DNA of 64,000 bases from Akkermansia muciniphila (GTDB lineage Bacteria > Verrucomicrobiota > Verrucomicrobiia > Limisphaerales > UBA1100): the NCBI GenBank assembly GCA_945903605.1, contig CAMDOH010000004.1, positions 2,593 through 66,592 on the forward strand, in the 5' to 3' direction. The notes beneath the pieces were generated by a model. That model had not been told where the DNA came from. It saw only the letters and a list, made by a program, of their open reading frames with translations, and did no database searches. Positions within the stretch are counted from its first letter, which is position 1; every line of letters starts with the position of its first letter. Below, piece by piece: positions 39,734-55,578 of this stretch. The translations under genes were made by a program, and so were the position numbers.

Positions 39734-39766
39734 ACGCGCGCGACGGATATTGCCGGCGGTGTTTCC

Positions 39767-40513: not shown

Positions 40514-40528
40514 CCGATACTATGTGGG

Positions 40529-40568
40529 AAGGCTGCCGTGCCCGCGTGGGGTCCTGCAGCCTTTTTTT
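40529..40568 (+). terminator. Rho-independent terminator
   Basis: The sequence AAGGCTGC-(19 nt with an inner CCC/GGG pairing)-GCAGCCTT runs into TTTTTTT. It lies 16 nt after the stop at 40513. Confidence 0.7.
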
Positions 40569-40698
40569 ATGGCCGGTGTGAAATTCCGGCCAAAACGCCA
40601 TGGCGCATCACCAATTACGGTTGGGAGAAATGGGCAAGCCGATCGCATCGGCTTTGGATGCGATTGTCAGTCTGTTTTATCATTTGGGGTGATGACCA

Positions 40699-42519
40699 AT
40701 GTCGACACCCAAGCCATCCAATCCGCAACTCGCACCGTCTGCTGACGCGGCCAACTCGGAGCCGGCCAAGCCGCTCACATTTTCCGAGCTACTCGAACTA
40801 GCTGAGGAAGGCCGCCCTTCGGCGCAATTCCGTGTCGCTGTCAAATACGATGAGGGCGACGGCGTTCCGCAGAACGACAAGGCAGCCTTCTATTGGTACA
40901 AGAAAGCGGCAGACCGCAATTATCGTTGGGCACTCAACAATCTCGGCGTGATGTACGCCACTGGCCGCGGCACAAAACAGAATCAGCGCAAGGCAGCCGA
41001 ATTGTATCGGCGTGGCGCGGAGCGAGGCTGCTCGCAGGCGCAATGCAATTTCGGGTGGGTCTGCGCAACCGGTCGCGGTGTGAAACGCGACGCTGTCCAA
41101 GCGGTGAAATGGTATCGGATCGCCGCAGCGCAGGGCGACGTTCAGGCGCAGAATAATCTTGGTGTGATGATGCAGGCTGGTGATGGCACTGAGCACGATG
41201 AATCCGAAGCGGTAAAATTATTCCGACAAGCTGCGGAGAAGGGAAATCGATTTGGTCTCTCCAATCTCGGCATTGCTTTGTCAGAAGGCAGGGGAGTTGA
41301 GGCCAACATACCAGAAGGAATCAAATCGCTTCGCGAGGCCGCGAAACAGAGCGAAGTGCAGGCGAGTTATTATCTCGGTTGCCTGTTCGCATCGGGAAAC
41401 GGGGTTGGAGCCGACCCGATCGAGGCAGAACGATTATTCCGGTTAGCTGCAGCGGAAGATCACGCAGGCGCACAAAATAATTTGGGAATATTGCTGGCGT
41501 CCGCTGGCAGCTCCGTTGCCGATCCTGCAGAGGTCGCAAAGTGGTATCGGCGAGCTGCAGATCAAGGACTGGTATCGGCGCAGTACAATCTGGCGATGCG
41601 GCTGAAGACAGGCAACGGAGTTGGAGAAGACAGGAAAGAGGCAGCGGTTTGGTTTAGGAAAGCAGCGGAGCAGGGGCATGTGGGAGCGGCGTATGAGTTG
41701 GGGCAATGGTTGGAGAGAGAGGACGGAACAAATTTAGAAGTGTGGAGATGGTACGGAGAAGCGGCTGGGGGAGGAGTATTGGCGGCGCAAGTGAAGTATG
41801 CGGATTGGTTGGTGAGGAGCGGGAAAGTGAAAGAATCGATTGAGTGGTACGAGAAGGGAGCGCGGAGTGGGGATGCGCATTCGCAGATGAATCTGGCGAC
41901 GTACATGGAAGGGGGGATGGCGAAGGCAGATGATCTGGGAGCAGCAGGATGGTATCGGAAAGCAGCGGAGCAGGGAGTTGCCAAAGCGCAGTTGAGGATG
42001 GGCGAGATGTTAGAGAGTGGAGAAGGAGCTGGGCAAGATTTGGCGGGAGCGGTGAATTGGTATCGGAAGGCGATGGAGAACGGGGTGATGGAAGCGAGGA
42101 TGAATTTGGCGCGTGGCTTATTGAGTTCGGAACGAACTGCGGGCAACTTGCTTGAAGCGGTGAAATTGCTGAGGCCATTTGCGGAGGAGGGAGATGTGGA
42201 ATTGCAGATGACATTGGGACAGTTGTACCGAGACGAGGCTGAACCAGTGCGCGACGACATCCAATCGATCAAGTTCCTGAAACTGGCGGCCGAACAAGGT
42301 CACGCGGGGGCGCAGTTGCTTTTGGCGGACATGTACCAGACGGGGCGCGGAACGGATTCGAGTTTGCCGAAGGCTTATTGGTGGTACCAATTGGTCTCCC
42401 TTCGTGGAGTGGAATTGGCTCGTCACAATTCAGCCGTGATTCTGCGAATGATGTCTAAAGAGGAAATGGTGGAAGCGCAGGCGTTGTTATTGCAATCGAC
42501 TGGGCTGACGCCTGCCTGA
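40699..42519 (+). CDS. Sel1-repeat (TPR-like) protein, about 14-15 repeats
   Basis: 606 aa. It contains iterated units such as A..WYRKAAEQG...AQ.NLG.M...G.GV..D. No signal peptide is evident. Confidence 0.85.
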   Translation: MSTPKPSNPQLAPSADAANSEPAKPLTFSELLELAEEGRPSAQFRVAVKYDEGDGVPQNDKAAFYWYKKAADRNYRWALNNLGVMYATGRGTKQNQRKAAELYRRGAERGCSQAQCNFGWVCATGRGVKRDAVQAVKWYRIAAAQGDVQAQNNLGVMMQAGDGTEHDESEAVKLFRQAAEKGNRFGLSNLGIALSEGRGVEANIPEGIKSLREAAKQSEVQASYYLGCLFASGNGVGADPIEAERLFRLAAAEDHAGAQNNLGILLASAGSSVADPAEVAKWYRRAADQGLVSAQYNLAMRLKTGNGVGEDRKEAAVWFRKAAEQGHVGAAYELGQWLEREDGTNLEVWRWYGEAAGGGVLAAQVKYADWLVRSGKVKESIEWYEKGARSGDAHSQMNLATYMEGGMAKADDLGAAGWYRKAAEQGVAKAQLRMGEMLESGEGAGQDLAGAVNWYRKAMENGVMEARMNLARGLLSSERTAGNLLEAVKLLRPFAEEGDVELQMTLGQLYRDEAEPVRDDIQSIKFLKLAAEQGHAGAQLLLADMYQTGRGTDSSLPKAYWWYQLVSLRGVELARHNSAVILRMMSKEEMVEAQALLLQSTGLTPA

Positions 42520-42563
42520 TGGCTTGCGTTGACGGAGTGGGTTGCTAGGATTTCTGAAACCTC

Positions 42564-43898
42564 ATGAACTCACCCCATCGCATCTCCATACTCACATCTC
42601 TAGCGCTGTTTATTTCAGTGGCGCTCAATGCGGCGATGGTTCCGCAGGCAGCGATCAAAGAAATGATCGCCAAGGAAAACGCATCGCTGGTCGATCTGTA
42701 CAAACATTTCCACGCCACGCCCGAGCTGTCTTTTCGTGAGACGAAATCGGCCGAGCGAATCGCCTCCGAGTTGAAGCTGGCCGGATTTGAAGTGACGACC
42801 AAAGTGGGGGGGCACGGCGTCGTTGCCGTGATGCGCAATGGTCGTGGGCCGACGGTTCTCGTGCGTGCGGATCTCGATGGATTGCCGGTGAAAGAAGAGA
42901 CGGGGCTGCCGTATGCCAGCAAACACACGATGCTTGATGAAGCGGGCAATCTGGTTTCGACGATGCACGCTTGTGGCCACGACGCGCACATGGCGTGTTT
43001 GATCGGCACCGCGAGGATGCTGAGCCGGCTCAAGGAAAATTGGCAGGGGACGTTGGTGATGATTGGCCAGCCTGCTGAGGAAAGGGGTGGCGGCGCAAAG
43101 GCGATGCTCGAAGATGGCTTGTACAAACGGTTCCCCGTTCCGGACTACGGATTGGCACTGCATGTCGCCGCCGATTTGCCCACGGGCACCATCGGTTATG
43201 TGGAAGGGTTCGCCATGGCAAATGTGGATTCGGTGGACATCATCGTGCGCGGTATTGGCGGACACGGCGCTCAACCGCAATCGGCAAAAGATCCGATCGT
43301 GCTTTCAGCGCAAATTATTCTCGCGCTCCAAACCATTCGCAGTCGCGAGATTCATCCTCTTGAGCCGGCGGTGGTAACGGTCGGCTCCATTCACGGCGGA
43401 ACGAAACACAACATTATTTCCGACGAAGTCCGCATGCAGCTCACGTTGCGTTCATACAACGATGAGGTGCGAAAACAGATGATCGATGCCATCAGCCGGA
43501 TCACGCGCGGACTGGGACAGGCCGCAGGACTTCCCGACGACAAATTACCGATCGTCGAATTGAAGAACGAGCACACACCGGCTGCGTACAACGACCCAAA
43601 GCTGGCCAAGCGCGCGCGTGTCGTGTTCGAAGAATGGCTCGGGCCGGGAACGGTGCTGGATCGAAAACCTTCCATGGGCGGCGAAGACTTCGGTCAATTT
43701 GGACGGACAGAACACAAGGTGCCGGTGTTTTTGTTTTTCGTCGGGTCGATCAATTCCGCGCGATTCAAAGAGAGTCTGCGATTGGGGAAAGCTCTGCCGT
43801 CGGCACATTCAAGCCGCTACGCACCCGATCCCGATCCGACGATCAAGACAGGCGTCACCGCGATGACGGCGGCAGTACTGGAATTGATGCGCCGTTGA
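42564..43898 (+). CDS. M20D family amidohydrolase (N-acyl-amino acid / hippurate hydrolase-like), secreted
   Basis: 444 aa. The signal peptide is SILTSLALFISVALNA. The motifs MHACGHDAH, GQPAEE and GGEDF are present. Confidence 0.85.
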   Translation: MNSPHRISILTSLALFISVALNAAMVPQAAIKEMIAKENASLVDLYKHFHATPELSFRETKSAERIASELKLAGFEVTTKVGGHGVVAVMRNGRGPTVLVRADLDGLPVKEETGLPYASKHTMLDEAGNLVSTMHACGHDAHMACLIGTARMLSRLKENWQGTLVMIGQPAEERGGGAKAMLEDGLYKRFPVPDYGLALHVAADLPTGTIGYVEGFAMANVDSVDIIVRGIGGHGAQPQSAKDPIVLSAQIILALQTIRSREIHPLEPAVVTVGSIHGGTKHNIISDEVRMQLTLRSYNDEVRKQMIDAISRITRGLGQAAGLPDDKLPIVELKNEHTPAAYNDPKLAKRARVVFEEWLGPGTVLDRKPSMGGEDFGQFGRTEHKVPVFLFFVGSINSARFKESLRLGKALPSAHSSRYAPDPDPTIKTGVTAMTAAVLELMRR

Positions 43899-43931
43899 TG
43901 CCGTTGCGATTCCGGGTTTGCCACTTGCCGG

Positions 43932-46235
43932 ATGAAGCCTTACAAGCGCGCCGTGCCGAATCCGTTTCTGCGATACCCGATCCCCTCGCTGGGTGTGCTC
44001 TTGGCGATTGTCGCCGCAGCACTGCTGTTCGGTCGGATCGAAGTGGATTCAGAAATGCGGGCATTGCTGGAGGGCGATCAACGAAACTTGGACAGTTACG
44101 AGAAGGTAAATCGCATTCTTGGCGATGACATCGCGGTCATCGTTAGCATCGATTGTCCTGAAGTTTTTTCTCCCGACAACATCGCCGTATTGAGGCAAGT
44201 CACTGCCGAGTTGAAGCAGCTCAAGGGTTACACGGGAATCAGCGCAGTGACAGATGCCTTCCGTCCATTCCGTGCAGGATTTGGCATCCGATGGGATCCG
44301 CTCATACCCACCGAGGGCAATGTGGATTATGCGAAGCTCAAGGAATGGGCCATCGCTCATCCGCTGGTGCGGAACATCATGATCGCGCCCGATGGCCGGC
44401 ACACCATCGTGATGGCCAACTTTAACAGGCCATTTGAGACGACCCTGCAAATCCGAAAGTTCCGTTCCGAAGTGGACGCCGCCCTGGCTCCATTGAACGC
44501 CGCGAAACTTCCTTTTCACTTGCTGGCATTTCCATTCATCGAGCAGGAGATTCTCGACACGTTGCGCGTGGATATGAAGCAGTTCATTCCATTGGCATTT
44601 TTGCTGGCTGTATCAGTTTTGGCTGTGACATTCCGATATTCCAAACGACTCGTCATCTGGGTGCTTGCCAATCAAGTGGCCGGTTTATTATTACTCCCCG
44701 GTCTGCTTCAGATCACCGGGCTGAGTGTGAGTGTGTTCACAGTCATTCTGCTTCCCTTGCTCGCCGCTGTTCATCTGGCACTGCTCTCGCATGCAGGCAC
44801 CGCTTTTCAACGCGCGCTAAAAACAGGCGTTGCCGGAACGGAAGGGATCGGGCAGATGCTGCGCGAATCGTTCAAGCCGTGCGTGTATTCGGCGGTGACG
44901 ACGGCCGTCGGCCTCGCTTCATTTGCCTCCAGTGACATGGCTCAATTACGGGACTTTGGATTATTGGGCGCGCTGGGAGTATTGATGTTGTTGGTGCTCA
45001 CGTTTGGTCCCGGGATTTCTTTGCTTCAATTGATGTTCAAATCGCACGATGGTTCCAAATTGCAGTCATCCGAAACTGCGACCAACATTGGATGGAGCGT
45101 GCGTTGGACAGATATTCTCGTCCGGAACACACGCTGGATTTGGATGGGGATGCTGGGTTGCGTGTTGCTGGCATCCGTGGGGGTGGGGCGAATCCGGACC
45201 GACATCCGCGCGGTGGAATTTTTAAGCCCGAAAAGTCCGTCGCGGCTGGCGTTTGAAGAGATGGACCGCGTTTATGGCGGCATCAACGTGGTTCAAATCC
45301 AGTTTGATTCAGGCAAATCCAACGGGGTCATCAGCCCGGAATTTCTGAAATACATGGCGCGCATCGAACGGCACGCTTCCGAGAAAACAGGCGTCACCGG
45401 AGTATTTTCCTACGGCCAATTATTGGCGGCGCTCAATGAAGTGTGGGAAGGATATCGTCCCGGAACCTTGCAGTTGCCAGAGAATCCGATTCTCATCGCG
45501 ACGCTCTCGTATCTTGTCCGGGCTTCAGAGGAATCACTCCCATTCATCAGGACGCTTTGCGACGAATCCTTCCGTGTAGCCCACTTGACCGTGCGCACGC
45601 GCGACATGCCCGCCGATGAATATCTGAACTTCGTGCGCGAGCTGGAACAATTCGCCAACCAAGGCAAGCCTCCGCAAGTGACAGTGTCTGCGCAGGAAGG
45701 CATCCACTCGATACTCGAGGCGGACCGGCGGATTTTGCGCAGCTTGCAGCGCAGCTCGATGGTGACCTTCGGAGTCGTCGGCGTGGTGTTGCTGCTTTTG
45801 TGGCGGTCGCCGTTGCTCGTGCTGTTGGCATTGGCTGCCAATGCTGTGCCAATCGGTTTAGTCGTCGCTCTGCAAGGATTCGCAGGAGTGCCGCTCAACT
45901 CCATCACCATCATGGTTGGATCAATCGCCTTCGGTGTGGTGATGGATGACACGATTCATTTCATCACGCATTGGCGGGAGGAACGGCTAGCCGGCAAAAC
46001 GGCCATCGCCGCCGCGCGCGCCGCGCTCGAGGCAAAGGGCAGGGCGATGGTTTGCACGAGCCTTGTGTTGATCGCGATTGTTGGCGTTTTCCTGCTCTCC
46101 TCATTTCCGCCGGTGGTTCATTTCGGACTACTTTCTGTCATGGGCTATACAGCGACACTCGGTGCGGCACTGATATTATTACCCGCTGTACTGGGCAGTT
46201 GGATTGAACCAAGAACTCGGAACGACTCTCATTGA
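43932..46235 (+). CDS. MMPL/RND superfamily transporter (HpnN-like lipid exporter architecture)
   Basis: 767 aa. The layout is two blocks, each a TM helix, a large periplasmic loop and a 5-TM bundle. This is typical of MMPL/hopanoid-type RND proteins. Confidence 0.8.
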   Translation: MKPYKRAVPNPFLRYPIPSLGVLLAIVAAALLFGRIEVDSEMRALLEGDQRNLDSYEKVNRILGDDIAVIVSIDCPEVFSPDNIAVLRQVTAELKQLKGYTGISAVTDAFRPFRAGFGIRWDPLIPTEGNVDYAKLKEWAIAHPLVRNIMIAPDGRHTIVMANFNRPFETTLQIRKFRSEVDAALAPLNAAKLPFHLLAFPFIEQEILDTLRVDMKQFIPLAFLLAVSVLAVTFRYSKRLVIWVLANQVAGLLLLPGLLQITGLSVSVFTVILLPLLAAVHLALLSHAGTAFQRALKTGVAGTEGIGQMLRESFKPCVYSAVTTAVGLASFASSDMAQLRDFGLLGALGVLMLLVLTFGPGISLLQLMFKSHDGSKLQSSETATNIGWSVRWTDILVRNTRWIWMGMLGCVLLASVGVGRIRTDIRAVEFLSPKSPSRLAFEEMDRVYGGINVVQIQFDSGKSNGVISPEFLKYMARIERHASEKTGVTGVFSYGQLLAALNEVWEGYRPGTLQLPENPILIATLSYLVRASEESLPFIRTLCDESFRVAHLTVRTRDMPADEYLNFVRELEQFANQGKPPQVTVSAQEGIHSILEADRRILRSLQRSSMVTFGVVGVVLLLLWRSPLLVLLALAANAVPIGLVVALQGFAGVPLNSITIMVGSIAFGVVMDDTIHFITHWREERLAGKTAIAAARAALEAKGRAMVCTSLVLIAIVGVFLLSSFPPVVHFGLLSVMGYTATLGAALILLPAVLGSWIEPRTRNDSH

Positions 46236-47506
46236 ATAATCTCGACGCGCCCGACGCCAGCGATAGGATGACTTGCGTAGCGCAGAGGCGCATGAACACA
46301 ACCGTGCTTTCCCAAACAAGCGGAGAAACCGCATTGCCAAAAAGTTCCGGCAACCACTCCAAACTCACCCCGCCGCGTGGCTACGCCTTGGAAGACATGG
46401 CGGCTCGTCGCGCTTGGCTGGAAGAAAAAATCGGTCGGCCCCTGCCTGAATTCAAGCTCGATTCGCCCGAGGATTTTCAAGGACTGCTCGAGAATCAAGT
46501 CGGTTACCTCGGCCTTCCGTTATCCGTGGCCGGACCGCTCAAAATCGAAGGCACCTACGCACGCGGGGAATTCCAAGTGCCGCTCTGCACTGTGGAAGGC
46601 ACGCTGTCCCTTTCGATGACGCGCGGTTTATATCTCGCCCATCTTTCCGGTGGATTCAAATCGCAGCATCTGCGGCAGGAACTTTCTCGCAGCCCCATTT
46701 TTATCTTCGATGAGATCGAAGACGCCGCTGCGTTTGCCACTTGGATAGATCGTCAATTTGCGCCGATCAAAGCCGCTGCTGAGACTTCCACACGACACGG
46801 CAAACTTCTGCGCATCGAAAAACAGATCGTCCACAACCGGGTGATTCTCAATCTGGTTTATTCCACGGGCGAGGCTGCCGGGCAGAACATGGTGACCGTC
46901 GCCACAGAACACGCCTGCAACCACATCGCAGCAACAGCGCGCGACCTCAAGCTGAAGCGTTGGCTGATCGAGAGTAATTATTGTGGCGACAAAAATGCCG
47001 CCACCGGCACGATGATGCGCGGTCGCGGACATCACGTCATTTGCAGTGCGCTCATCGAGGAGCGTTTTCTGCGCAAACTTTTTCGAACCACTCCCGAGGC
47101 AATGCTCGCCAGTTGTGTCGATAAACATTTGGGTTCCCAACTCGGTGGCGTGCTCGGGATGAACATGCACAATGCCAATGCGCTCGCGGCGATTTACATC
47201 GCCACGGGGCAGGACGCCGCTTGCGTGGCCGAAAACTGTGTGGGCATCACCACTTATGAGGCACGCGGCAACGACCTGTATTGCACGTTGACGATGCCTT
47301 CGATCACCGTGGGCACAGTTGGCGGCGCCACGCGGCTTCATCAACAGCGCGCCAATCTGGATATGCTCGGTTGTTCCGGTCCGGACTCTTCTAAAAAACT
47401 TGCTGAAATCATCTGCGCGGCAAGCCTCGGGCTGGAACTTTCGTTGGGCGGAGCGATCGTCAGTCACGAGTTCGCCACGGCCCACGCACAATTCGGGAGG
47501 CGGTGA
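46232..47506 (+). CDS. HMG-CoA reductase family (class I-like) protein, divergent
   Basis: The maximal ORF starts at a TTG at 46232, overlapping the MMPL stop. Alternative ATGs lie at 46268 and 46292. Motifs seen are ENQVGYLGLPLSVAGP, TVEGTLSLS, TGEAAGQNM (compare DAMGMNM), CGDKNAA, ATGQDAACVAEN and GTVGGAT. Confidence 0.8.
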   Translation: MNNLDAPDASDRMTCVAQRRMNTTVLSQTSGETALPKSSGNHSKLTPPRGYALEDMAARRAWLEEKIGRPLPEFKLDSPEDFQGLLENQVGYLGLPLSVAGPLKIEGTYARGEFQVPLCTVEGTLSLSMTRGLYLAHLSGGFKSQHLRQELSRSPIFIFDEIEDAAAFATWIDRQFAPIKAAAETSTRHGKLLRIEKQIVHNRVILNLVYSTGEAAGQNMVTVATEHACNHIAATARDLKLKRWLIESNYCGDKNAATGTMMRGRGHHVICSALIEERFLRKLFRTTPEAMLASCVDKHLGSQLGGVLGMNMHNANALAAIYIATGQDAACVAENCVGITTYEARGNDLYCTLTMPSITVGTVGGATRLHQQRANLDMLGCSGPDSSKKLAEIICAASLGLELSLGGAIVSHEFATAHAQFGRR

Positions 47507-48232
47507 GTGTCCGCATTTTCCGAACTACTCGAACGTACTCCGCTCGAGCCTGAATACGCCTATTTGACGGAGGATCCATCCGCCACCGCGCGATGGCTTC
47601 GCGTGGGATTCAACGGCTTCTGCTGGTCGCTTTTCAATCTCTGGTGTCCGCTCACTGCCGTGGGACGCGAACGTCTCCCCAAACCGCCCTTTGTCCTCTG
47701 CAGCAATCACAGCAGCCACATGGACAGCGCCGCGCTCATGTGGGCTTCAGGTTTGGGCATCGATCGGTTTGGCATGCTGGCCGCCAAGGATTATTTCTTT
47801 GATAACAAACGTCGGAAAAGTTTTCTGCCACTGCTGATGAATCTGATTCCCGCCGAGCGCCAAACCAACCGCCACGCCATCACGCGGTTCCTCGTCGCCT
47901 GTCGCGCTTTCGTTCGCTTTCGAGAACGGTGCCTGATTATTTATCCCGAGGGAACGCGTTCTGTGACTGGGCAGATGGCTCCCTTCAGGCGCGGCGCGGC
48001 GATGCTCGCAGTCGAATTGGGATTGCCGCTCGTGCCTGCTTATGTGTGCGGCACATTCAAGGCGATTCCCAAAGGCAGCAACCTTGTTCGCCCCACGCGA
48101 TTGACTGTCACATTTGGCGACCCCGTCGATTACAAACAATTTTCTGCAGCTACCGCCAGCGCGCAATACGACGCGGTGAACGCCGAGCTGGAGCGACGTG
48201 TCCATCAACTTGCATCCACACATGCCCATTGA
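47507..48232 (+). CDS. PlsC-family (lysophospholipid/DHAP-type) acyltransferase
   Basis: 241 aa. The GTG start lies immediately after the upstream stop. The HX4D motif is NHSSHMD. The block IIYPEGTRS is present. Confidence 0.85.
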   Translation: MSAFSELLERTPLEPEYAYLTEDPSATARWLRVGFNGFCWSLFNLWCPLTAVGRERLPKPPFVLCSNHSSHMDSAALMWASGLGIDRFGMLAAKDYFFDNKRRKSFLPLLMNLIPAERQTNRHAITRFLVACRAFVRFRERCLIIYPEGTRSVTGQMAPFRRGAAMLAVELGLPLVPAYVCGTFKAIPKGSNLVRPTRLTVTFGDPVDYKQFSAATASAQYDAVNAELERRVHQLASTHAH

Positions 48233-49958
48233 AGTGCCGCACATGAAATGGTGGGGTTGGGGAGTCGAAGGTTCCTCCTTCGAGATCTCCGGAAAACCCG
48301 GCCTCTTTCCCTATCTCAAACGAGAATTGGGCGTCACCGATGAACAGGTCACCACTCCGCCGGTTCCACTTGCTGATGTGCGCATGCCTGAACGCAAACT
48401 CAACGGTCCATTCGAAGCTGCACTCGAGAAAGTGTTGCGGGCCGACCAGATTCGGAACGACCGCCACGAGCGTCTCATTCACGCCTTCGGCAAAAGCTAT
48501 CGCGACTTGTGGCGTGTCCGTCGCGGAGAAGTTGAACGCGCACCCGACCTCATCATCTACCCCGAGTCGGAACAGGATGTCGTCGCTGTGATGGCTGCCG
48601 CATTGGAGCACAGCGCCGTCATCATCCCATTCGGTGGCGGATCTAACATCGCCGGTTGCCTGGAGCCTCGCGACAAGTCCGGCCGTTACATCGTTTCGCT
48701 CGACATGGGGAGGATGGACCGCGTGCTGTCCGTCGACAAAGACTCGCTCATCGCGCGCATCCAACCCGGCGGTTGGGGAATGCGGATGGAGAATCAGCTT
48801 CGCGAGCACGACGTGACACTCGGCCATTTCCCGGACTCGTTTCTTTACTCGACACTCGGCGGTTGGATCGCCACGCGTTCGGCAGGTATGCAGAGCGATG
48901 TGTACGGCAAGATTGAGGACATGGTTGTCGCACTCCGGATGGTGACACCCGCTGGCACGATCATCACGCGCACGGTCCCGAAATGTTCCAATGGCATCGA
49001 CGTGAAACAGCTTTGTATCGGGAGCGAAGGGATACTTGGCGTGATCACCGAGGCGACCATGCGCGTCCACCCACTGCCTGAGAGCCGCAAGATTTACGGA
49101 TATCTATTTCCAGATTTTGAGAGCGGCGCAGCGGCGCTCAAAGAATGCACCCGGCTCAATATCTGGCCGGTGATTGCGCGGCTCAATGACCCGAAAAAAA
49201 CCGCACTCTCATTTGCATTCAAGGGCACAAAGACTCCCTTCAAAGCACTGCTCACCCAAGTTGTGAAGTGGTGGATCCACCATGTGAAGGGAATCGATTT
49301 CACGAAATGTTGCATGATGATTGTCGCGTTCGAAGGCGACAGCGCAACGGTCGAGCGCACGCGTTTGCTGGCCGATGGAGTGTATTGCAAACATGGGGCC
49401 GCCGGACTGGGCACCGAACCCGGCCGTGGATTCGAGAAGGCCAAATTTGATTTCCCGCACCTGCGCGATTTTGTCATGGACCGCAACATCATGGCCGATG
49501 TGAGCGAGACCGCCACCACTTGGGCGAATCTGCTTCCATTTTATCGTGACACCAAACGTTCGATCGAACAGGCGATCACCGATACCGGCAGCCTGCCGTG
49601 GGTCGGCTGTCACATCAGCCACAACTACCATACCGGCGCGAGTCTCTATTTTACATTCGGTTGTCGGCAATGTCCCGGCCGCGAAATGGAGCAATATCTG
49701 TATGTGAAAAAAGCGGCTGAAGATGCGTTCATGCGCAATGGCGGAACCCTTTCGCATCATCACGCCGTTGGCACTGAGCATCTGCCATGGGTCGAGGCTG
49801 ATATTTCACCCGCAGGTGTCCGTGCTGTGCGAGCGCTCAAGGATGGGATTGACCCCAAAAACATCATGAACCCCGGCAAGATAATTCCATCCGATCAGCC
49901 ACTGGCCGATTGGGGGTTGTCCGGCGACTCTTCCAAACTTTTTTCCGCTGGCAAATGA
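48222..49958 (+). CDS. FAD-linked oxidase of the alkyldihydroxyacetonephosphate synthase (AGPS) type
   Basis: The maximal ORF is 48198..49958. Candidate ATGs are at 48222 and 48243. The N-terminal MKWWGWG resembles the AGPS KWNGWG motif. The PCMH FAD domain block is IIPFGGGSNIAGC. The C-terminal GGTLSHHHAVG matches the AGPS HHH loop. Confidence 0.8.
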   Translation: MPIEVPHMKWWGWGVEGSSFEISGKPGLFPYLKRELGVTDEQVTTPPVPLADVRMPERKLNGPFEAALEKVLRADQIRNDRHERLIHAFGKSYRDLWRVRRGEVERAPDLIIYPESEQDVVAVMAAALEHSAVIIPFGGGSNIAGCLEPRDKSGRYIVSLDMGRMDRVLSVDKDSLIARIQPGGWGMRMENQLREHDVTLGHFPDSFLYSTLGGWIATRSAGMQSDVYGKIEDMVVALRMVTPAGTIITRTVPKCSNGIDVKQLCIGSEGILGVITEATMRVHPLPESRKIYGYLFPDFESGAAALKECTRLNIWPVIARLNDPKKTALSFAFKGTKTPFKALLTQVVKWWIHHVKGIDFTKCCMMIVAFEGDSATVERTRLLADGVYCKHGAAGLGTEPGRGFEKAKFDFPHLRDFVMDRNIMADVSETATTWANLLPFYRDTKRSIEQAITDTGSLPWVGCHISHNYHTGASLYFTFGCRQCPGREMEQYLYVKKAAEDAFMRNGGTLSHHHAVGTEHLPWVEADISPAGVRAVRALKDGIDPKNIMNPGKIIPSDQPLADWGLSGDSSKLFSAGK

Positions 49959-49961
49959 TCC

Positions 49962-50756
49962 ATGAGTTTTCCTGCGACAGCAGTCATCACCGGCGCCTCG
50001 GCTGGTTTGGGCCGAGAGATGGCCATTGAGCTGGCTCGGCGCGGAACTCGCCTCGCACTCGTGGCGCGTGGCGAAGAAGGACTGCGCGAGACGGCACGAT
50101 TGTGCGTGGCTGCGGGCGCGGTGGAGCCCATCATTGTGACTGCCGATGTGACACGCGCTGAAGACTGCGTTCGCCTCGTGAACGAATCTGCCGCGGGACT
50201 CGGCACGATCGATTGCCTCATCAACAATGCGGGTCAAAGCATGTGGGCCCCCTTTGAGTCGGTGGATGACCCGGCGATCTTTCAACGGCTCATGGCTGTG
50301 AATTATCTCGGTCCAGTGTGGTGTGCGCATGCGTCTTTACCTCACTTGCGTCGCAGTGGCGGGATGCTCGTGATGATCGCCTCCGTTCAATCCAAAATCG
50401 GCGCGCCCTATCACACTGGCTACACGGCCGCCAAACATGCGTTGGAGGGATTCACGGAGTCGTTGAGGATGGACCTCGATGGTAGCGGCGTTGGGATTCT
50501 CACCGTGTATCCATCGTGGATTAGCGGCACGCGATTGCGGCATTCCTCGGAAGGTAAAAATGGTAATGGGAGTGACAAAGGAAGCGACGCCGTTTCATCC
50601 ATGGATTGTGCCAGACGCATCGTTGGCGCCATCGAGCGCCGTGCGACCAGTTTGTTTATACCTCGCTGGATGGCGTTGCTGCCGTTCTTCCGGTGGGCAT
50701 TTCCTAGTCTGCTGAGGCATTTCGTGCTACGTAAGGTGAAACGGTACCACGAATAA
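49962..50756 (+). CDS. Classical short-chain dehydrogenase/reductase
   Basis: 264 aa, beginning 3 nt after the upstream stop. The motifs are TGASAGLG, NNAG, and S...YTAAK (the catalytic Ser/Tyr/Lys). Confidence 0.9.
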   Translation: MSFPATAVITGASAGLGREMAIELARRGTRLALVARGEEGLRETARLCVAAGAVEPIIVTADVTRAEDCVRLVNESAAGLGTIDCLINNAGQSMWAPFESVDDPAIFQRLMAVNYLGPVWCAHASLPHLRRSGGMLVMIASVQSKIGAPYHTGYTAAKHALEGFTESLRMDLDGSGVGILTVYPSWISGTRLRHSSEGKNGNGSDKGSDAVSSMDCARRIVGAIERRATSLFIPRWMALLPFFRWAFPSLLRHFVLRKVKRYHE

Positions 50757-51416
50757 ATGAGTGAACCATCACACATGCGATTGGGTTACCGCTTCGCGTG
50801 GCTGATGGGGCGGGCCGCTTGCAGCACCTATTTTCGTTGGCGAGTCGTGCAACGCGAACGCGTGCCGGCCACCGGCGGCGTGGTCCTCGCCACCAACCAT
50901 GCCAGCTATTTCGACCCCGTTTTCGTTGGTTCCGCCTTACCTCGCCCAGTTTATTATCTCAGCAGGTACACGGCATTTGAATTCCCGCTCGGGAATTTCT
51001 TGCGGCGCGTGCTCAATATTGTTCCTGTAGATTTGCAGGGTGGTGCCAGCCGTGGATTTCGGACGATTCTAAGTCGACTGGAAGGCGGCGCGGCGATCCT
51101 CATTTTTCCTGAAGGGACGAGGACCTACGATGGAAAGTTGCAAAGCCCCAAAGCGGGCATCGGGTTTACCATCATCAAAACCAGCGTGCCTGTGGTTCCC
51201 GTGTGTATCATCGGCAATTATGATGCCTACGGTCGGCACCGCCGATTTCCATTGCCCCGCCGAGTCGTCATCAAATTCGGACAACCCCTGTTGTTCAGTG
51301 ATGAGCGTGAGCGTGCCAAAACAGCCTCGAAGGAAGAACTGCGCGAACTTTACCAATCCGTCGCAACCCAAATGATGGATGCCATTGGGCGATTGCAGTC
51401 CGATTCAATTCCTTGA
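50757..51416 (+). CDS. PlsC-family 1-acyl/alkyl-glycerol-3-phosphate acyltransferase
   Basis: 219 aa. The ATG lies immediately after the upstream TAA. The motifs NHASYFD, IFPEGTRT and VPVVPV are present. Confidence 0.85.
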   Translation: MSEPSHMRLGYRFAWLMGRAACSTYFRWRVVQRERVPATGGVVLATNHASYFDPVFVGSALPRPVYYLSRYTAFEFPLGNFLRRVLNIVPVDLQGGASRGFRTILSRLEGGAAILIFPEGTRTYDGKLQSPKAGIGFTIIKTSVPVVPVCIIGNYDAYGRHRRFPLPRRVVIKFGQPLLFSDERERAKTASKEELRELYQSVATQMMDAIGRLQSDSIP

Positions 51417-51447
51417 AACCAATCGGTGCCGCACAGCCCATCCACAA

Positions 51448-52905
51448 ATGAACATCACCCAACACACCAAAGGAACTCCGACGGCTGCTGTCGATTGCGC
51501 CGTTGTTTTTCTGCGCGATGGACAACGTCCGCCGAAGGCCATTGACGCCGCCACCGACGGGTTGATCTCCGACCTCATTGAAAAGAAAGAATGGAACGGT
51601 CGACCGGGAGAATCGCTCATCCTCCATCGGCCACACGGACTGAAGGCGCCCCGGCTCATGCTCGTGGGCGGCGCGAAGAAATGGGATCCTCGCACCGCAT
51701 TCGAGTCCGCTGCTCATGCGGCGCGTGCGGCTGTTCGTTGCGGCAAACACATCTCGCTCGAAATAGAAAACACCGCACTGACCCGTCCCATCGTCGAGGG
51801 ATTCATTTTTGGCAATGGCAATTCCGATGAACACAAAACCGCCGGGCAACGCCCCTCCATCGAGTCGCTCACCGTGTGCGTGACAGCGCGATCGACTAAA
51901 ATCGCACGCGACATCGACCGTGCGCGAATTTCTGCCGAGGCTACGAATCAGGCTCGCCGCGTGATTAATCTGCCGCCCAATTCTCTCGGTCCAGTGGAGT
52001 TGGCTGACCTCGCCACCGACTTGGGAACCAAAGCTGGAATGGATGTGGAAGTATTCGATGAACACCGCCTGCGCGAATTGGGATTCGGTGCGCACTTGGC
52101 TGTGGGACAGGGGTCGCTGCGCCCGCCGCGACTCGTTCGCCTGTCATGGTCGCCCAATCGAGCTGATGCCCAACGCCATCTTTTTCTCGTCGGCAAAGGA
52201 ATTACTTTCGATTCCGGCGGACTCTCGCTCAAAACAGCATCGCAAATGGAGACGATGAAATATGACATGGCAGGAGCCGCCACGATGCTCGCCGCCATGA
52301 TTGCCATCGCTCAACTCCGCCTGCCGATGCGAGTGACGGCTCTGCTCGCACTCGCAGAGAACATGCCGTCGGGCACAGCCATGCGGCCGGGAGACATCGT
52401 TCGCGCGCTGAACGGAAAGACGATTGAGATTTTGAACACCGACGCCGAAGGTCGGCTCGTTTTGGCAGACGCTCTGGCACATGCCGTTAATCTGGGGGCG
52501 ACGCACATCATCGACGCGGCGACTCTCACAGGCGCGGTGAGTGTAGCGCTCGGCGATGTGAATGCGGGGCTGCTCACGAATTCCGTGCCATTTGCAAATG
52601 GACTTGTCGCAGCGGGCACTCAGGCAGGCGAACGTTACTGGCGCTTGCCGATGGATGATGATTATCTTGCGCCGATGCGCGGCGAGTTTTCCGATTTGCG
52701 GAATTCTTCTGCAAACCGCAAGGCGGGCACGATCACGGCCGCAAAGTTTCTTGAGCAATTCGTAGGTGGCGTGCCTTGGATCCACTTGGACATTGCTGGA
52801 GTGGGATGGGCCGAGAAGAATCGCGCCGACCGTTGTTCCGGTGCCACTGGCCACAGCGTGCGCACGCTCATCCGGTTCGTCGAGGCGTTGAGTGGACGGA
52901 GTTAG
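51448..52905 (+). CDS. pepA: Leucyl aminopeptidase (M17)
   Basis: I prefer the ATG at 51448. The motifs VGKGITFDSGG, NTDAEGRLVLAD and HLDIAG are present. Confidence 0.9.
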   Translation: MNITQHTKGTPTAAVDCAVVFLRDGQRPPKAIDAATDGLISDLIEKKEWNGRPGESLILHRPHGLKAPRLMLVGGAKKWDPRTAFESAAHAARAAVRCGKHISLEIENTALTRPIVEGFIFGNGNSDEHKTAGQRPSIESLTVCVTARSTKIARDIDRARISAEATNQARRVINLPPNSLGPVELADLATDLGTKAGMDVEVFDEHRLRELGFGAHLAVGQGSLRPPRLVRLSWSPNRADAQRHLFLVGKGITFDSGGLSLKTASQMETMKYDMAGAATMLAAMIAIAQLRLPMRVTALLALAENMPSGTAMRPGDIVRALNGKTIEILNTDAEGRLVLADALAHAVNLGATHIIDAATLTGAVSVALGDVNAGLLTNSVPFANGLVAAGTQAGERYWRLPMDDDYLAPMRGEFSDLRNSSANRKAGTITAAKFLEQFVGGVPWIHLDIAGVGWAEKNRADRCSGATGHSVRTLIRFVEALSGRS

Positions 52906-52951
52906 CCCGATACGAGTTGTCAATCCGCGCGCATAAAGCCATCTTGGATTC

Positions 52952-54079
52952 ATGACAACTCCCCGAATCGTCGCGCTGCGCGCATTTCTATCCTCATTCA
53001 TTTTGTCCACGGTTTTTCTTTTCGCTGAATCGATTCCCAAGCCATCACCCGCGCATTTCTCACCGCCAGCCGAATTTGTTGGCAAGTTGGGCGACTACCG
53101 TTCTCCACTGAGATTCAACGATGACAGACTGGTGAAGACTTCTGCCGATTGGGCGAAGCGGCGTGAAGAAATCCTTCGTCAATGGAACGGGTTGATGGGC
53201 GATTGGCCAAAGCTGCTGGAAAAACCGAAGCTGGAATTGGTCGGGAAATCGCAGCGGGAAGGGATCACGCAACACAAGGTCCGGGTTGAAATTGCCGCCG
53301 GTCAGATGTTGTCCGGAATCTTGCTTGTGCCCGAAGGAAAAGGGCCGTTTCCTGCCGTGCTCGTTCCGTTTTATGATGCTGAGACGGGCGCGGGACTCGG
53401 CAAACCGTTGCGAGATTTTGGCTGGCAACTTTCCAAACGAGGCTTCGTCACGCTCTCGATCGGTTCACCCGGCGGCGATGCGCGCAAACCTGAATCCGGC
53501 AAACCGCAATGGCAACCGCTCTCCTATCTGGCCTATGTCGCCGCCAATTGTCACACGGCCTTGGCACAGTCGGGATATGTGGATGCCTCGCGCATCGGTG
53601 TGGCTGGCCATTCCTACGGTGGCAAATGGGCGATGTTCGCCGCGTGTTTTTATGACAAATTTGCCTGCGGTGTTTGGAGTGATCCGGGAATCATGTTCGA
53701 TGAGACTCGGTCGAACATCAATTATTGGGAGCCGTGGTATCTCGGTCGCGATGAGAAAATGACGCGCAAGCCGGGCGTTGTCACCGCCGCCAATCCACGC
53801 ACCGGCGCCTACAAAATGATGGTGGAGCAGGGACGCGATCTGCATGAGGTGCAGGCGTTGATGTCTCCGAGGCCGTTCCTCGTCTCCGGTGGCGCTGAGG
53901 ATTCTGCCAAGCGCTGGATCGCCCTCAATCATATCGTGGCTGTGAACACGCTGCTCGGTCATTCTAATCGTGTGGCGATGACCAATCGGCCGATGCACGA
54001 TCCGACAGAAGAATCCAACGCTGTGCTCGTCGGGTTTTTTGAACAGTTTCTGAAGCCGTCGTTGCGGCGTGTTGAATGA
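52952..54079 (+). CDS. Secreted alpha/beta hydrolase (acetyl-xylan-esterase / dienelactone-hydrolase-like)
   Basis: 375 aa with a signal peptide. The nucleophile elbow is GHSYGG. The N-terminal lid region is typical of AXE1-like esterases. Confidence 0.7.
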   Translation: MTTPRIVALRAFLSSFILSTVFLFAESIPKPSPAHFSPPAEFVGKLGDYRSPLRFNDDRLVKTSADWAKRREEILRQWNGLMGDWPKLLEKPKLELVGKSQREGITQHKVRVEIAAGQMLSGILLVPEGKGPFPAVLVPFYDAETGAGLGKPLRDFGWQLSKRGFVTLSIGSPGGDARKPESGKPQWQPLSYLAYVAANCHTALAQSGYVDASRIGVAGHSYGGKWAMFAACFYDKFACGVWSDPGIMFDETRSNINYWEPWYLGRDEKMTRKPGVVTAANPRTGAYKMMVEQGRDLHEVQALMSPRPFLVSGGAEDSAKRWIALNHIVAVNTLLGHSNRVAMTNRPMHDPTEESNAVLVGFFEQFLKPSLRRVE

Positions 54080-55572
54080 TGGAGTCGCCGTCGGATAATC
54101 TTCGACAGCGCGTGGGTCTGATTCTGTCGCCACTTGTTTGCGCGTGTGTTTGGTTTGTTCCCTTGTCCGGATTGAATCCGGCGGCGCATCATCTCCTCGC
54201 GATACTCGCAGCGGTCGTCACGCTGTGGGTCACCGAGGCAATTCCACTGGCGGTGACCGCTTTGCTCGGTCCGACACTGTGCGTTGTCGTCGGAGTTTCC
54301 GAAGCGAAAGTAGCCTACAAAGGATTCGCCGATCCGATCATCTTTCTTTTTCTCGGCAGCTTTCTGCTGGCCGAAGCGATGATTCACCACGGACTGAATC
54401 GCCGAATCGCATTCACCCTGCTAGGGATGCCGGCCTTCGGGAAAAATCCGGCGCGTGTGCTTCTCGGATTCGGTCTGGTGACAGCGCTCATCTCGATGTG
54501 GGTTTCGAACACAGCGACAACGGCGATGATGTTTCCCGTTGGCGTCGCGATCCTGACGGAGATGGCGCGACAGGCATCGCGCCAAGCGGGACGAGAGATT
54601 GATTATACGCAACTGCGTTTTGGAACAGGACTGATGCTGATGGCTGCATTCGCATCCTCCATCGGCGGGTTGGCAACACCGGTGGGGACACCGCCGAATC
54701 TCATCGGCATCGGCCTTATCGAAAAACATCTCGGAACAAAGATCTCATTTTTCCAATGGGTCAGTTTCGGATTGCCACTGGCGCTGGTGTTGCTCGCGTT
54801 TCTGGTGGTCCACTTAAAAAGGGCGTGTCCAGCCGATGCAGGTTTGACGACTGGCGGCGACTGGATCGAACTGGAGAAAGCCAAGTTGGGGCCGATCCGA
54901 CGTGGCGAATGGAATGTGCTCTTCGCATTTTGTTTTATGGTTTCTCTCTGGTTGCTGCCCGGCGTGGTGGTGCTGATCACCGGTTCCGATTCTCACTATG
55001 CCAAACTGTTGAACACCCATTTGCCCGAAGCCACAGTGGCGTTGCTGGGAGCGACGTTGCTCTTTGTGCTTCCAATCAATTTCGCTCGCGGCGAATTCAC
55101 GTTGAGCTGGCGCAATGCCGAACGAATTGACTGGGGTACGATTCTTCTTTTTGGCGGCGGGTTGGCGCTGGGTGAGATGATGTTTTCCACGGGATTGGCC
55201 ACTTGGATTGGTGAAGGGCTGGCTCATTTGCTAAATGCGAAAACAAGTTTGGGCCTGGTGATTTTGTTCACGGTGATTGCCGTGCTTGTTTCTGAAACTA
55301 CTTCTAATGCTGCCTCCGCCACGATGGTGGTGCCCGTGGCCATCGCGGTGGCGCAAGCTGCTGGGGTGGATCCACTGCGTCCTGCGTTGGCGGCGTGTCT
55401 CGGTGCGTCGATGGGTTTCATGCTGCCGGTTTCAACGCCGCCGAATGCCATTGTTTACGGCTCGCGCTGCATCCCTCTCTCGAAGATGATCACTCAGGGT
55501 GCCGCACTGGATGCGGCGGGAATTGTCGCCGTTGTGGCTGTCGTGGAATGGCTCGTGCCGTTGGTTTTTTGA
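54076..55572 (+). CDS. DASS/SLC13 family sodium-coupled anion (di/tricarboxylate or sulfate) symporter
   Basis: 498 aa. The ATG overlaps the upstream stop (ATGA). The two hairpin SNT-type motifs are VSNTATTAMMFP and TSNAASATMVVP. Confidence 0.85.
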   Translation: MMESPSDNLRQRVGLILSPLVCACVWFVPLSGLNPAAHHLLAILAAVVTLWVTEAIPLAVTALLGPTLCVVVGVSEAKVAYKGFADPIIFLFLGSFLLAEAMIHHGLNRRIAFTLLGMPAFGKNPARVLLGFGLVTALISMWVSNTATTAMMFPVGVAILTEMARQASRQAGREIDYTQLRFGTGLMLMAAFASSIGGLATPVGTPPNLIGIGLIEKHLGTKISFFQWVSFGLPLALVLLAFLVVHLKRACPADAGLTTGGDWIELEKAKLGPIRRGEWNVLFAFCFMVSLWLLPGVVVLITGSDSHYAKLLNTHLPEATVALLGATLLFVLPINFARGEFTLSWRNAERIDWGTILLFGGGLALGEMMFSTGLATWIGEGLAHLLNAKTSLGLVILFTVIAVLVSETTSNAASATMVVPVAIAVAQAAGVDPLRPALAACLGASMGFMLPVSTPPNAIVYGSRCIPLSKMITQGAALDAAGIVAVVAVVEWLVPLVF

Positions 55573-55578
55573 GGACAC

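Follow-up and report, generated by a model that had tools for sequence, protein, structure and literature searches.

We describe a gene cluster that probably encodes an AGPS (alkyl-dihydroxyacetonephosphate synthase)-dependent pathway to 1-O-alkyl glycerolipids, located in a 64,000-nucleotide stretch of Akkermansia muciniphila DNA (GCA_945903605.1, contig CAMDOH010000004.1; hereafter, the window, whose numbering is used throughout). Judged by its sequence, this Verrucomicrobial cluster looks like an animal-type ether-lipid route in which the usual fatty-alcohol enzyme has been replaced by a repurposed relative of HMG-CoA reductase (HMGR). Four of its genes form a core that spans at least six bacterial phyla and provides testable candidates for natural makers of alkyl-glycerol lipids.

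Table 1 Genes of the putative ether-lipid cluster in the window
Product	Coordinates	Strand	Length	Predicted role or remark
MMPL/RND (HAE3-like) membrane transporter	43932..46235	+	767 aa	Candidate lipid exporter; lineage-specific accessory
FcrA-type fatty acyl-CoA reductase (putative), class-I HMGR homologue	46232..47506	+	424 aa from TTG	
AT1, PlsC-superfamily acyltransferase (HX4D, YPEGTRS)	47507..48232	+	241 aa	Putative DHAP acyltransferase, GNPAT equivalent
AGPS orthologue	48198..49958	+	586 aa	
Classical SDR	49962..50756	+	264 aa	Putative 1-alkyl-DHAP (acyl/alkyl-DHAP) reductase
AT2, second PlsC-superfamily acyltransferase	50757..51416	+	219 aa	Putative sn-2 acylation of 1-alkyl-G3P; lineage-specific accessory

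The first-pass annotation had described these genes as a six-gene operon for a complete ether-lipid pathway with its own exporter. All six ORFs were present on the forward strand between 43932 and 51416, packed as annotated: the HMGR-like gene overlaps the MMPL gene by 4 nt when read from its TTG start, AT1 overlaps AGPS, 3 nt separate AGPS from the SDR gene, and the HMGR-like/AT1 and SDR/AT2 junctions are 0 nt. Pfam upheld the family of every product, and each annotated motif was found in the translations (NHSSHMD and YPEGTRS in AT1; NHASYFD and FPEGTRT in AT2; TGASAGLG, NNAG, and YTAAK in the SDR; KWWGWG and LSHHHAVG in AGPS). On 99%-identical contigs, gene callers placed three starts differently: 46268 or 46292 for the HMGR-like gene, 48222 for AGPS, and 50775 for AT2. 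Because HMGR-like homologues are mostly ~383 aa long, the TTG codon probably lies too far upstream to be the true start, which is probably the ATG at 46268 or 46292; AGPS likely starts at 48222, giving 578 aa. The co-directional array exceeds six genes, with an M20 peptidase gene ending 33 nt upstream of the MMPL gene and an M17 aminopeptidase ORF overlapping the end of AT2, and a promoter/terminator scan of the locus gave no signal above background. Thus—while sequence cannot fix the limits of the operon—the six genes are no more than a plausible transcription unit.

The order HMGR-like/AT/AGPS/SDR recurred in at least 25 independent genomes from several phyla, arguing that it reflects more than chance. 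This core was colinear in Verrucomicrobiota, Ignavibacteria/Bacteroidota, Planctomycetia, Gemmatimonadales, Caldithrix, and Gammaproteobacteria, between unrelated flanks; the neighborhood, whose loss in relatives had been named as an argument against the annotation, is hence conserved across phyla. The six-gene cassette as annotated held for these four genes, whereas MMPL and AT2 are Verrucomicrobial additions. Acidobacteriota retain AT1–AGPS alone of the four core genes, so the four are not always required together in cis. In a Coxiellaceae locus (L038), a fusion of a FAR domain (PF07993) with an acyltransferase lies together with SDR and AGPS genes but without an HMGR homologue; the fusion stands in for FcrA and AT1, a case of non-orthologous displacement.

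The 586-aa oxidase carries FAD_binding_4 and FAD-oxidase_C domains (Pfam) and matched the solved Dictyostelium enzyme (PDB 2uuu) with E = 3.9e-139 and a second solved AGPS (4bby) with 3.7e-89, compared with 9e-26 for its best non-AGPS match, a D-lactate dehydrogenase. It shares 41% identity with Dictyostelium ADPS across 536 aa, and its Y484, R328, and H520–522, equivalent to the catalytic Tyr578, Arg419, and His615–617, are invariant in the alignment. Grouping with lactate or glycolate oxidases, the outcome that would have spoken against the annotated AGPS type, was rejected on these grounds. The protein is a true AGPS orthologue, with substrates predicted by homology.

The HMGR-like protein has HMG-CoA_red (PF00368, 3e-103) as its sole detected Pfam domain, and it scored 282.5 bits against the HMGR equivalog model TIGR00533 (NCBIfam), under the cutoff of 441.8. 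FcrA, an HMGR-derived fatty acyl-CoA reductase, was characterized in 2025 from Ca. Promineifilum and Natronomonas (Grossi et al., ISME J, PMC11948995); its signature comprises Ser684→Glu, Leu862→bulky aromatic, and absence of the conserved lysine that forms a salt bridge with HMG, with catalytic residues retained. Equivalents of E559/K691/N755/D767/H866 are retained in the window protein and in all 27 AGPS-linked homologues, which uniformly carry S684→E, L862→F, and K692→N, while K735 is not conserved among them. In a neighbor-joining tree, the protein falls outside the canonical HMGRs, within a monophyletic AGPS-linked subclade of a non-canonical group; every subclade member sampled (6/6, down to 41% identity) adjoins AT and/or AGPS. 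A canonical mevalonate HMGR identity was rejected given the signature, the equivalog score, and this tree position. The protein thus carries the published FcrA signature, providing the annotated alcohol-supply step with a candidate whose activity we predict from these residues and the separation from canonical HMGRs. Of note, K692→N is specific to the AGPS-linked subclade, and R590 is kept; the substrate could therefore differ from plain fatty acyl-CoA.

Both acyltransferases matched Acyltransferase PF01553 (Pfam; 6e-18 for AT1, 8e-23 for AT2), yet they are only 24% identical to each other. AT1 aligned to the acyltransferase domain of the L038 fusion with 45% identity (3e-57), AT2 with 25%, and the acyltransferase half of FAR-AT fusions is regarded as a GNPAT module (PMC13012113). 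This orthology to an AGPS-adjacent fusion bears out AT1 as the candidate DHAP acyltransferase, the presumptive GNPAT equivalent. Among non-acidobacterial loci, 30 of 31 have AT1 immediately before AGPS, as do 40 of 52 acidobacterial-type loci. AT1–AGPS is the best conserved pair of the cassette, as expected if AT1 makes the AGPS substrate. AT2 follows the SDR gene in nine Verrucomicrobial loci, is absent from the L016–L021 group and outside Verrucomicrobia, and probably acylates sn-2 of 1-alkyl-G3P; the roles of the two acyltransferases could be swapped or different. The SDR matched adh_short (Pfam, 1e-45) and NF004825 (NCBIfam; 239.7 bits, over the cutoff of 215). Its gene comes next after AGPS in most loci (25, from several phyla), and L038 has an SDR gene as well, which agrees with the annotated ketone reductase and points to a 1-alkyl-DHAP (acyl/alkyl-DHAP) reductase.

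The transporter matched Pfam MMPL (3.3e-20), HAE3 (143.5 bits, cutoff 351.9), and an HpnN-like model (3e-20; 72 vs 752 bits; NCBIfam). Annotated as having 12 transmembrane segments, it showed ten strong hydrophobic segments in a two-fold RND layout by a crude hydropathy scan. MMPL/HpnN relatives are exporters of specialized envelope lipids, and like hpnN/mmpL the window gene adjoins lipid-biosynthesis genes, although its product scores far under every curated cutoff and falls outside all named subfamilies. An MMPL gene also occurs in another FcrA-type cluster (L092). The claim of a dedicated exporter finds weak support, because the homologue lies directly upstream of the cassette only in nine Verrucomicrobial loci, where the unrelated M20 and M17 flanks are conserved as well.

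From family membership, retained catalytic residues, and gene order, we infer the substrates, step order, and end product as follows. The FcrA-type protein would reduce long-chain acyl-CoA with two NADPH to a fatty alcohol, AT1 would convert dihydroxyacetone phosphate to 1-acyl-DHAP, the flavoenzyme AGPS would swap the acyl group for the alcohol to give 1-O-alkyl-DHAP, and the SDR would reduce the C2 ketone, yielding 1-O-alkyl-sn-glycerol-3-phosphate. As Verrucomicrobial additions, AT2 would acylate sn-2, producing a 1-alkyl-2-acyl-G3P able to enter normal head-group synthesis, and the MMPL transporter may carry the product to the outer membrane or through it. We found no published account of Verrucomicrobiota containing ether lipids. 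Ether lipids were absent from Pontiella isolates that carry elbD homologues (isolates treated there as Verrucomicrobia; PMC11868695), which calls for caution when inferring from homology.

The same enzymology might instead yield an ether lipid that is neutral or exported and not a bulk membrane phospholipid, with the MMPL protein as dedicated exporter. Such a product could be an alkyl-diacylglycerol, a lipid of the surface or outer membrane, or a signal comparable to the ether lipids of Myxococcus. The adjacent MMPL gene and its precedents, including L092, and the second acyltransferase favor such a product, but most cassette loci lack both MMPL and AT2, and export is thus no inherent part of the pathway; moreover, the cluster has no head-group or triacylglycerol-forming gene, and synteny of unrelated flanks within the phylum weakens the functional link. 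We therefore regard an exported product as unlikely, if still worth considering. A reassignment of the acyltransferases appears rather more doubtful: AT1 could act on sn-2 of 1-alkyl-G3P or on G3P, with 1-acyl-DHAP coming from housekeeping enzymes and AT2 playing an unrelated role. In its favor, the two proteins are small and of a generic PlsC type, and annotations everywhere call them 1-acyl-G3P acyltransferases, but the kinship of AT1, not AT2, with the fusion and the persistence of the AT1–AGPS pair alone in Acidobacteriota speak against this.

It is highly improbable that the HMGR homologue makes mevalonate, or serves wax-ester or free fatty alcohol formation, beside AGPS without pathway meaning. 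Public annotation of the whole clade reads 'hydroxymethylglutaryl-CoA reductase', all catalytic residues and R590 are retained, and FcrA was first found in a wax-ester context. Set against this are the sub-cutoff equivalog score, the lost or variable HMG-carboxylate contacts (S684, K692, K735) together with the FcrA-like L862→F, the adjacency to AT/AGPS in every sampled subclade member across phyla, and the FAR domain filling the homologue's place in L038. The scanned window ORFs, most but not all of those present, included no gene of the mevalonate pathway and no WS/DGAT gene.

Returning to the AGPS-dependent pathway, its parts are known, and the annotation somewhat overstated its novelty: a Myxococcus AGPS–FAR/AT–NAD operon has been described (PMC13012113), a published tally of AGPS homologues includes Verrucomicrobiota MAGs (PMC11868695), and it was proposed in passing that some FcrA may supply ether-lipid synthesis, citing a PlsC-like neighbor of fcrA in Coxiella and an AGPS located nine genes away from Pb-fcrA (PMC11948995). 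The tight fcrA–AT–agps–SDR cassette is absent from the latter account, and we found no description of it in the literature. The window protein shares with FcrA the fold, the catalytic Glu/Lys/Asp/His, and the diagnostic substitutions; however, the characterized enzyme helps to make wax esters and carries a lipid-binding Lad domain at its N terminus, whereas the window protein lacks Lad and belongs to the separate subclade with the extra invariant K692→N.

Like the window cluster, the Myxococcus operon is bacterial, co-directional, and AGPS-centered, and joins a reductase that forms alcohol from acyl-CoA with an acyltransferase of the PlsC superfamily and a reductase dependent on NAD(P); the four ether-specific activities predicted for the window cluster are those of this operon and of the eukaryotic pathway (PMC13012113). 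The operon differs in that its alcohol-forming domain is FAR/NAD_binding_4 rather than an HMGR-fold FcrA-type protein, and is fused to the acyltransferase rather than separately encoded. Gene order is another difference, with reductase–AT–AGPS–SDR in the window; the ketoreductase there is a classical SDR, and the Verrucomicrobial version adds AT2 and the MMPL transporter. None of the scanned window ORFs was a carF/PEDS1 desaturase. ElbD of the myxobacterial elbABCDE cluster is an acyl-CoA ligase–ACP–FAR–AGPAT multidomain enzyme. That system is likewise a bacterial, aerobic ether-lipid cluster with a thioester reductase and a PlsC-like acyltransferase, but it is AGPS-independent and tethers its substrate to a carrier protein, whereas the window cluster is AGPS-centered, without adenylation or ACP domains. 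The eukaryotic peroxisomal enzymes are FAR1/2, GNPAT, AGPS, the acyl/alkyl-DHAP reductase DHRS7B/Ayr1, and AGPAT. Common to that pathway and the window cluster are the reaction logic, a central AGPS with conserved active-site residues, an HX4D acyltransferase, and an SDR ketoreductase; in the window, however, a non-homologous HMGR-fold protein stands in for the Rossmann-fold FAR as alcohol supplier, a 241-aa minimal PlsC-type protein for the large GNPAT, and all genes are clustered, with no peroxisome.

The six plus-strand ORFs that the first-pass annotation had grouped were recovered by an ORF check (see table), and all sequence motifs it described were found in the encoded proteins. The junctions measure, in order, −4 nt, 0 nt, an overlap, +3 nt, and 0 nt. 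In 99%-identical metagenome contigs, gene callers placed the start of the HMGR-like gene at 46268 or 46292, that of AGPS (alkyl-DHAP synthase) at 48222, and that of AT2 (the second acyltransferase gene) at 50775. Given the first two of these positions and the length of HMGR-like homologues (mostly ~383 aa), the TTG start of the HMGR-like gene—and with it the −4 overlap with the MMPL gene—is doubtful. The co-directional gene array runs well past the six genes: the end of an M20 peptidase gene lies 33 nt upstream of the MMPL gene, and the AT2 stop is overlapped by an M17 aminopeptidase ORF, followed by an S9 hydrolase and a Na/sulfate-type symporter. A consensus scan of 39000–56500 for promoters and terminators returned counts at or near shuffle background and no usable operon boundary. 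Because of the extended array and the uninformative scan, transcription of the six genes as one operon is plausible only.

Genes of the candidate ether-lipid cluster
Gene	Coordinates	Strand	Pfam match	Remark
MMPL	43932-46235	+	MMPL	
HMGR-like (FcrA-like)	46232-47506	+	HMG-CoA_red, 3e-103 (PF00368)	
AT1	47507-48232	+	Acyltransferase	241 aa, stand-alone
AGPS	48198-49958	+	FAD_binding_4 + FAD-oxidase_C	
SDR	49962-50756	+	adh_short	
AT2	50757-51416	+	Acyltransferase	

GC content is uniform across the cluster region. The window is a Verrucomicrobiota metagenome contig; the genomes closest to it are MAGs of Pedosphaera, Limisphaerales, and Verrucomicrobiales type, with AGPS identities to the window of only 63–68%. 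One MAG labelled Akkermansia muciniphila (L005; CAMASG010000034.1) carries the cassette with an AGPS 67% identical to that of the window and, upstream, a 777-aa ORF that has no Pfam match at 1e-5; its taxonomic label looks doubtful. Differing gene calls in the homologous locus L001 had suggested an inversion downstream of the cluster, which was ruled out, L001 being colinear with the window at 99% identity. Upstream of the cluster, a Sel1-repeat protein (40699–42519) measures 606, 706, or 842 aa among the 99%-identical contigs, a variation that reflects tandem duplication of a ~336-bp unit (about 41641–41976): one population is polymorphic in repeat number. Also upstream are two minus-strand ORFs of very large size, 30929–35698 (1589 aa) and 22451–25765 (1104 aa), the latter with CBM9 and glucose/sorbosone-dehydrogenase (GSDH) domains.

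FcrA, an HMGR-derived fatty acyl-CoA reductase, is a class-I HMGR homologue that uses NADPH to turn long-chain acyl-CoA into fatty alcohol (Grossi et al. 2025, PMC11948995). HMG-CoA is not reduced and statins do not inhibit the enzyme, which is marked by a kept catalytic tetrad, Ser684 replaced by Glu, Leu862 replaced by a bulky aromatic residue, and loss of the Lys that salt-bridges HMG (PMC11948995; human HMGR numbering here and below). We aligned the window's HMGR-like protein and 26 homologues from AGPS loci with 149 representatives drawn from the nearest 50%-identity clusters, human HMGR, and the Methanothermococcus enzyme. Equivalents of Glu559, Lys691, Asn755, Asp767, and His866 were kept in 27/27 AGPS-linked reductases, window included, and the same 27 uniformly carried Glu for Ser684, Phe for Leu862, and Asn for Lys692, a position occupied by Lys in 137 of 145 other FcrA-like/HMGR representatives. 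A true HMGR function had been read from R590, which the window protein keeps, and from K735, where it has a Lys one position off and its alignment, alone among these proteins, is ambiguous. That reading was dropped after the 26-homologue alignment and the FcrA paper: the region of Lys735 holds no conserved Lys across the AGPS-linked clade, and this, together with the S684→E and K692→N replacements (all three positions contact the HMG carboxylate in canonical enzymes) and a score of 282.5 bits on TIGR00533 (the HMGR(NADPH) equivalog model) vs a cutoff of 441.8, speaks against a canonical HMGR (EC 1.1.1.34).

The fold, catalytic residues, and pocket substitutions of the window protein instead agree with the FcrA signature in the alignment. 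In a neighbour-joining tree drawn without the characterised Pb-FcrA and N. pharaonis FcrA, five canonical S/K/K/L sequences (human, M. thermolithotrophicus, and three representatives) stood apart from all others, and the AGPS-linked reductases, window included, formed one subclade inside the non-canonical group. From signature and topology, the HMGR-like protein is a putative member of the FcrA clade and a predicted FcrA-type fatty acyl-CoA reductase. The subclade-specific K692→N change and the kept R590 could point to an altered substrate. Among its nearest relatives outside the subclade are several domain fusions, of AMP-binding/ACP/HMGR-domain and HMGR-domain/kinase type; fusions to ACP (carrier protein) have also been reported for bacterial FcrA. 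In the fusion-type proteins P0244, P0245, P0251, P0252, P0256, P0287, P0255, P0268, and P0272, the FcrA/HMGR domain sits behind AMP-binding and ACP domains, in some cases followed by an EcKL/APH-type kinase or preceded by DUF3419. A fusion-type gene at locus L092 (7001–17015) is accompanied by a formyltransferase, a UbiA prenyltransferase, a PEP-utilising enzyme, and an MMPL/Patched-type transporter, in what looks like a different, uncharacterised lipid cluster.

The 586-aa oxidase had been proposed to be AGPS, and neither clustering with lactate/glycolate oxidases nor loss of active-site residues was seen. Searched against all PDB sequences, it matched the alkyl-DHAP synthases of Dictyostelium (3.9e-139; 41% identity across 536 aa) and guinea pig (3.7e-89) best, the top non-AGPS flavoenzyme being D-lactate dehydrogenase at 8.8e-26. 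Residue-by-residue alignment placed the catalytic Tyr578, Arg419, and His615-His616-His617 (guinea-pig numbering) at Y484, R328, and H520–H522 of the window protein, positions that were invariant in a 12-sequence bacterial alignment. NCBIfam, which holds no AGPS model, returned sub-threshold GlcD matches only. D-lactate, glycolate, and 2-hydroxyglutarate dehydrogenases are all more distant from this VAO-type two-domain flavoprotein than AGPS is; homology and active-site conservation identify it as an AGPS orthologue (EC 2.5.1.26).

AT1, the first PlsC-type acyltransferase, carries the HX4D motif NHSSHMD and the (F/Y)PEGTR motif YPEGTRS. While a search for its homologues returned stand-alone close relatives only, a fusion to a fatty acyl-CoA reductase (FAR) came to light via L038, a locus in a Coxiellaceae MAG. 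To the acyltransferase domain of this FAR-AT protein, AT1 is 45% identical (3e-57), vs 25% (1e-17) for AT2; the two window proteins share 24% identity. AT1 thus combines both motifs of a GNPAT equivalent with orthology to a FAR-fused domain; DHAP is its predicted acyl acceptor. The SDR is classical (TGxxxGxG, NNAG, YxxxK), with generic SDRs such as 11-beta-HSD1 and clavaldehyde dehydrogenase as its best solved relatives. It is genetically coupled to AGPS, which it directly follows in 25 loci among the best 80 of 574 relatives, and is a candidate acyl/alkyl-DHAP reductase with DHRS7B/Ayr1-like function. The MMPL protein passed the Pfam MMPL cutoff, scored far below the cutoffs for HAE3, actII, HpnN, and MmpL3, and showed ten hydrophobic segments in a crude scan. 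Its link to the pathway and the role of AT2 are the weakest parts of the assignment.

Considering these protein families and residues, we regard an AGPS-dependent route to 1-alkyl glycerolipids, with substrates as predicted, as the likely function of the core cassette. The FcrA-type enzyme would convert acyl-CoA to fatty alcohol, AT1 would acylate DHAP, AGPS would exchange the acyl group for the alkyl chain, and the SDR would reduce 1-alkyl-DHAP to 1-alkyl-G3P. In the lineage of the window, AT2 probably performs sn-2 acylation, and lipid export or relocation may fall to the MMPL protein. The window ORFs scanned, which were most of those of at least 200 aa (the 1589-aa one excepted) and part of the shorter ones, yielded no carF/PEDS1-type desaturase, no wax synthase, and no gene of the mevalonate pathway. 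Given that no desaturase was found among them, we predict a saturated (plasmanyl-type) ether as the product, provided that no desaturase gene lies elsewhere.

The reading of these genes as a pathway fits their neighbourhood, as the order was found in relatives across several phyla. An AGPS profile run on one genome per species yielded 574 relatives; we retained the best 80 and compared their loci by tblastn of the window proteins and clustering of locus ORFs. Among these 80, the order HMGR-like/AT1/AGPS/SDR, usually abutting, was present at 18 Verrucomicrobial loci. It recurred in Bacteroidota/Ignavibacteria (L023, L025, L026, L028, and L031), Planctomycetia (L027), Gemmatimonadales (L030), Caldithrix (L032), and an unclassified bacterium (L029). 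Three Gammaproteobacteria (Porifericomitaceae L024, Halothiobacillaceae L055, and Legionellales L047, the last in the order AT1-AGPS-HMGR) carry HMGR-like, AT1, and AGPS genes, with no SDR detected within the locus stretch compared. The flanks of the non-Verrucomicrobial cassettes are unrelated to one another (peptidase S46, WelO5-like, Kazal, PQQ propeller, DNA methylase, arginine deiminase, GSDH), and no extra conserved neighbour such as a desaturase or head-group enzyme lies beside them.

Sampling from the reductase side gave the same picture, with HMGR-AT-AGPS-SDR at P0199, P0241, and P0247, HMGR-AGPS at P0242, HMGR-AT at a contig end (P0243), and, at P0246, HMGR ahead of an AGPS homologue that shares only 28% identity with that of the window. 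An acyltransferase and/or AGPS gene adjoins every sampled member of the reductase subclade, down to 41% identity. MMPL and AT2 were each found at nine loci among the best 80 of 574, all in Verrucomicrobia, where the unrelated M20 and M17 flanks are conserved as well; one Verrucomicrobial group (L016–L021) lacks both genes. In that group a GSDH-domain protein follows the cassette, a probably coincidental parallel with the window's 1104-aa ORF. Some 50 Acidobacteriota loci (L033–L084; AGPS at about 10001–11700 in each) have the AT1-AGPS pair only, and no further partner, reductase and SDR included, was conserved in 52 acidobacterial-type loci. Apparent minus-strand families in these loci proved to be shadow ORFs inside AGPS or AT1. 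Where these bacteria obtain their fatty alcohol and ketoreductase matters to the debate over how acidobacterial ether lipids arose.

The L038 locus (5831–11653) encodes, in order, the FAR-AT fusion, the SDR, a cNMP-binding/Rce1-like membrane protein, and AGPS; it has no HMGR homologue. The 708-aa fusion joins a FAR domain (NAD_binding_4, 1e-54) to the acyltransferase domain, and the gene inserted between SDR and AGPS is of a cyclic-nucleotide-binding, CAAX-protease-like type. Such fusions (‘FARAT’), combining FAR with a GNPAT module, are known from Myxococcus (MXAN_1675) and many protists, and that of Tetrahymena is experimentally bifunctional (PMC13012113). In the simplest reading, the FcrA-like protein and AT1 would do the job of FAR and GNPAT, FcrA having displaced FAR inside an otherwise conserved gene set.

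Across phyla, the cassette would cover all four ether-specific steps. Non-isoprenoid alkyl glycerol ethers find wide use as environmental biomarkers; to our knowledge, little has been established outside Myxococcus about the aerobic bacteria that produce them and the biosynthetic genes involved. We tentatively entertain the broader possibility—somewhat short of even—that the cassette is a self-sufficient, horizontally spread module and a main aerobic route to 1-O-alkyl glycerolipids outside myxobacteria. If so, the non-isoprenoid alkyl glycerol ethers of waters and sediments would have unrecognised producers in Verrucomicrobiota, Ignavibacteria, Planctomycetia, Gemmatimonadales, and several Gammaproteobacteria. 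The FAR-for-FcrA swap would then be a clean non-orthologous displacement, with FAR and FcrA interchanging within one pathway, and would bear on the unresolved origin of eukaryotic AGPS. The FcrA family would gain a second, genetically well-supported physiological role. Being a compact set of four steps, the cassette makes agps screens a testable, higher-confidence marker through gene set and order; it also points to cultivable or MAG lineages for lipidomics, and a four-gene construct of ~4.5 kb might allow ether-lipid production in heterologous hosts.

Myxococcus is the only bacterium for which experiments have established the AGPS route; its operon joins a FAR-AT fusion and an NAD-dependent protein to AGPS (PMC13012113). 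Whereas FAR (PF07993) is fused to the acyltransferase in operons of this type, none of the six window proteins contains PF07993 and AT1 stands alone. BLAST surveys have tallied AGPS homologues in many phyla, among them Verrucomicrobiota (43 of 270 MAGs from the Black Sea; PMC11868695), and in sponge symbionts, and metagenome screens treat ‘agps’ as a stand-alone gene (PMC11868695; bioRxiv 10.64898/2026.06.23.733905). Ether lipids were not detected in Pontiella isolates that carry elbD homologues, which advises caution when lipids are deduced from homologues (PMC11868695). According to the FcrA paper, certain FcrA enzymes may provide alcohols for ether lipids; its examples are a PlsC-like neighbour of fcrA in Coxiella and an AGPS gene nine genes away from Pb-fcrA (PMC11948995). 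Apart from that paper, to which we found no follow-up, our search—which missed most subscription-journal literature—returned nothing joining HMGR with AGPS or ether lipids, and no description of a conserved fcrA-AT-agps-SDR cassette or its Verrucomicrobial six-gene form. We therefore rate the enzymes and their chemistry as known, and the widely distributed, not yet described gene arrangement as what is new.
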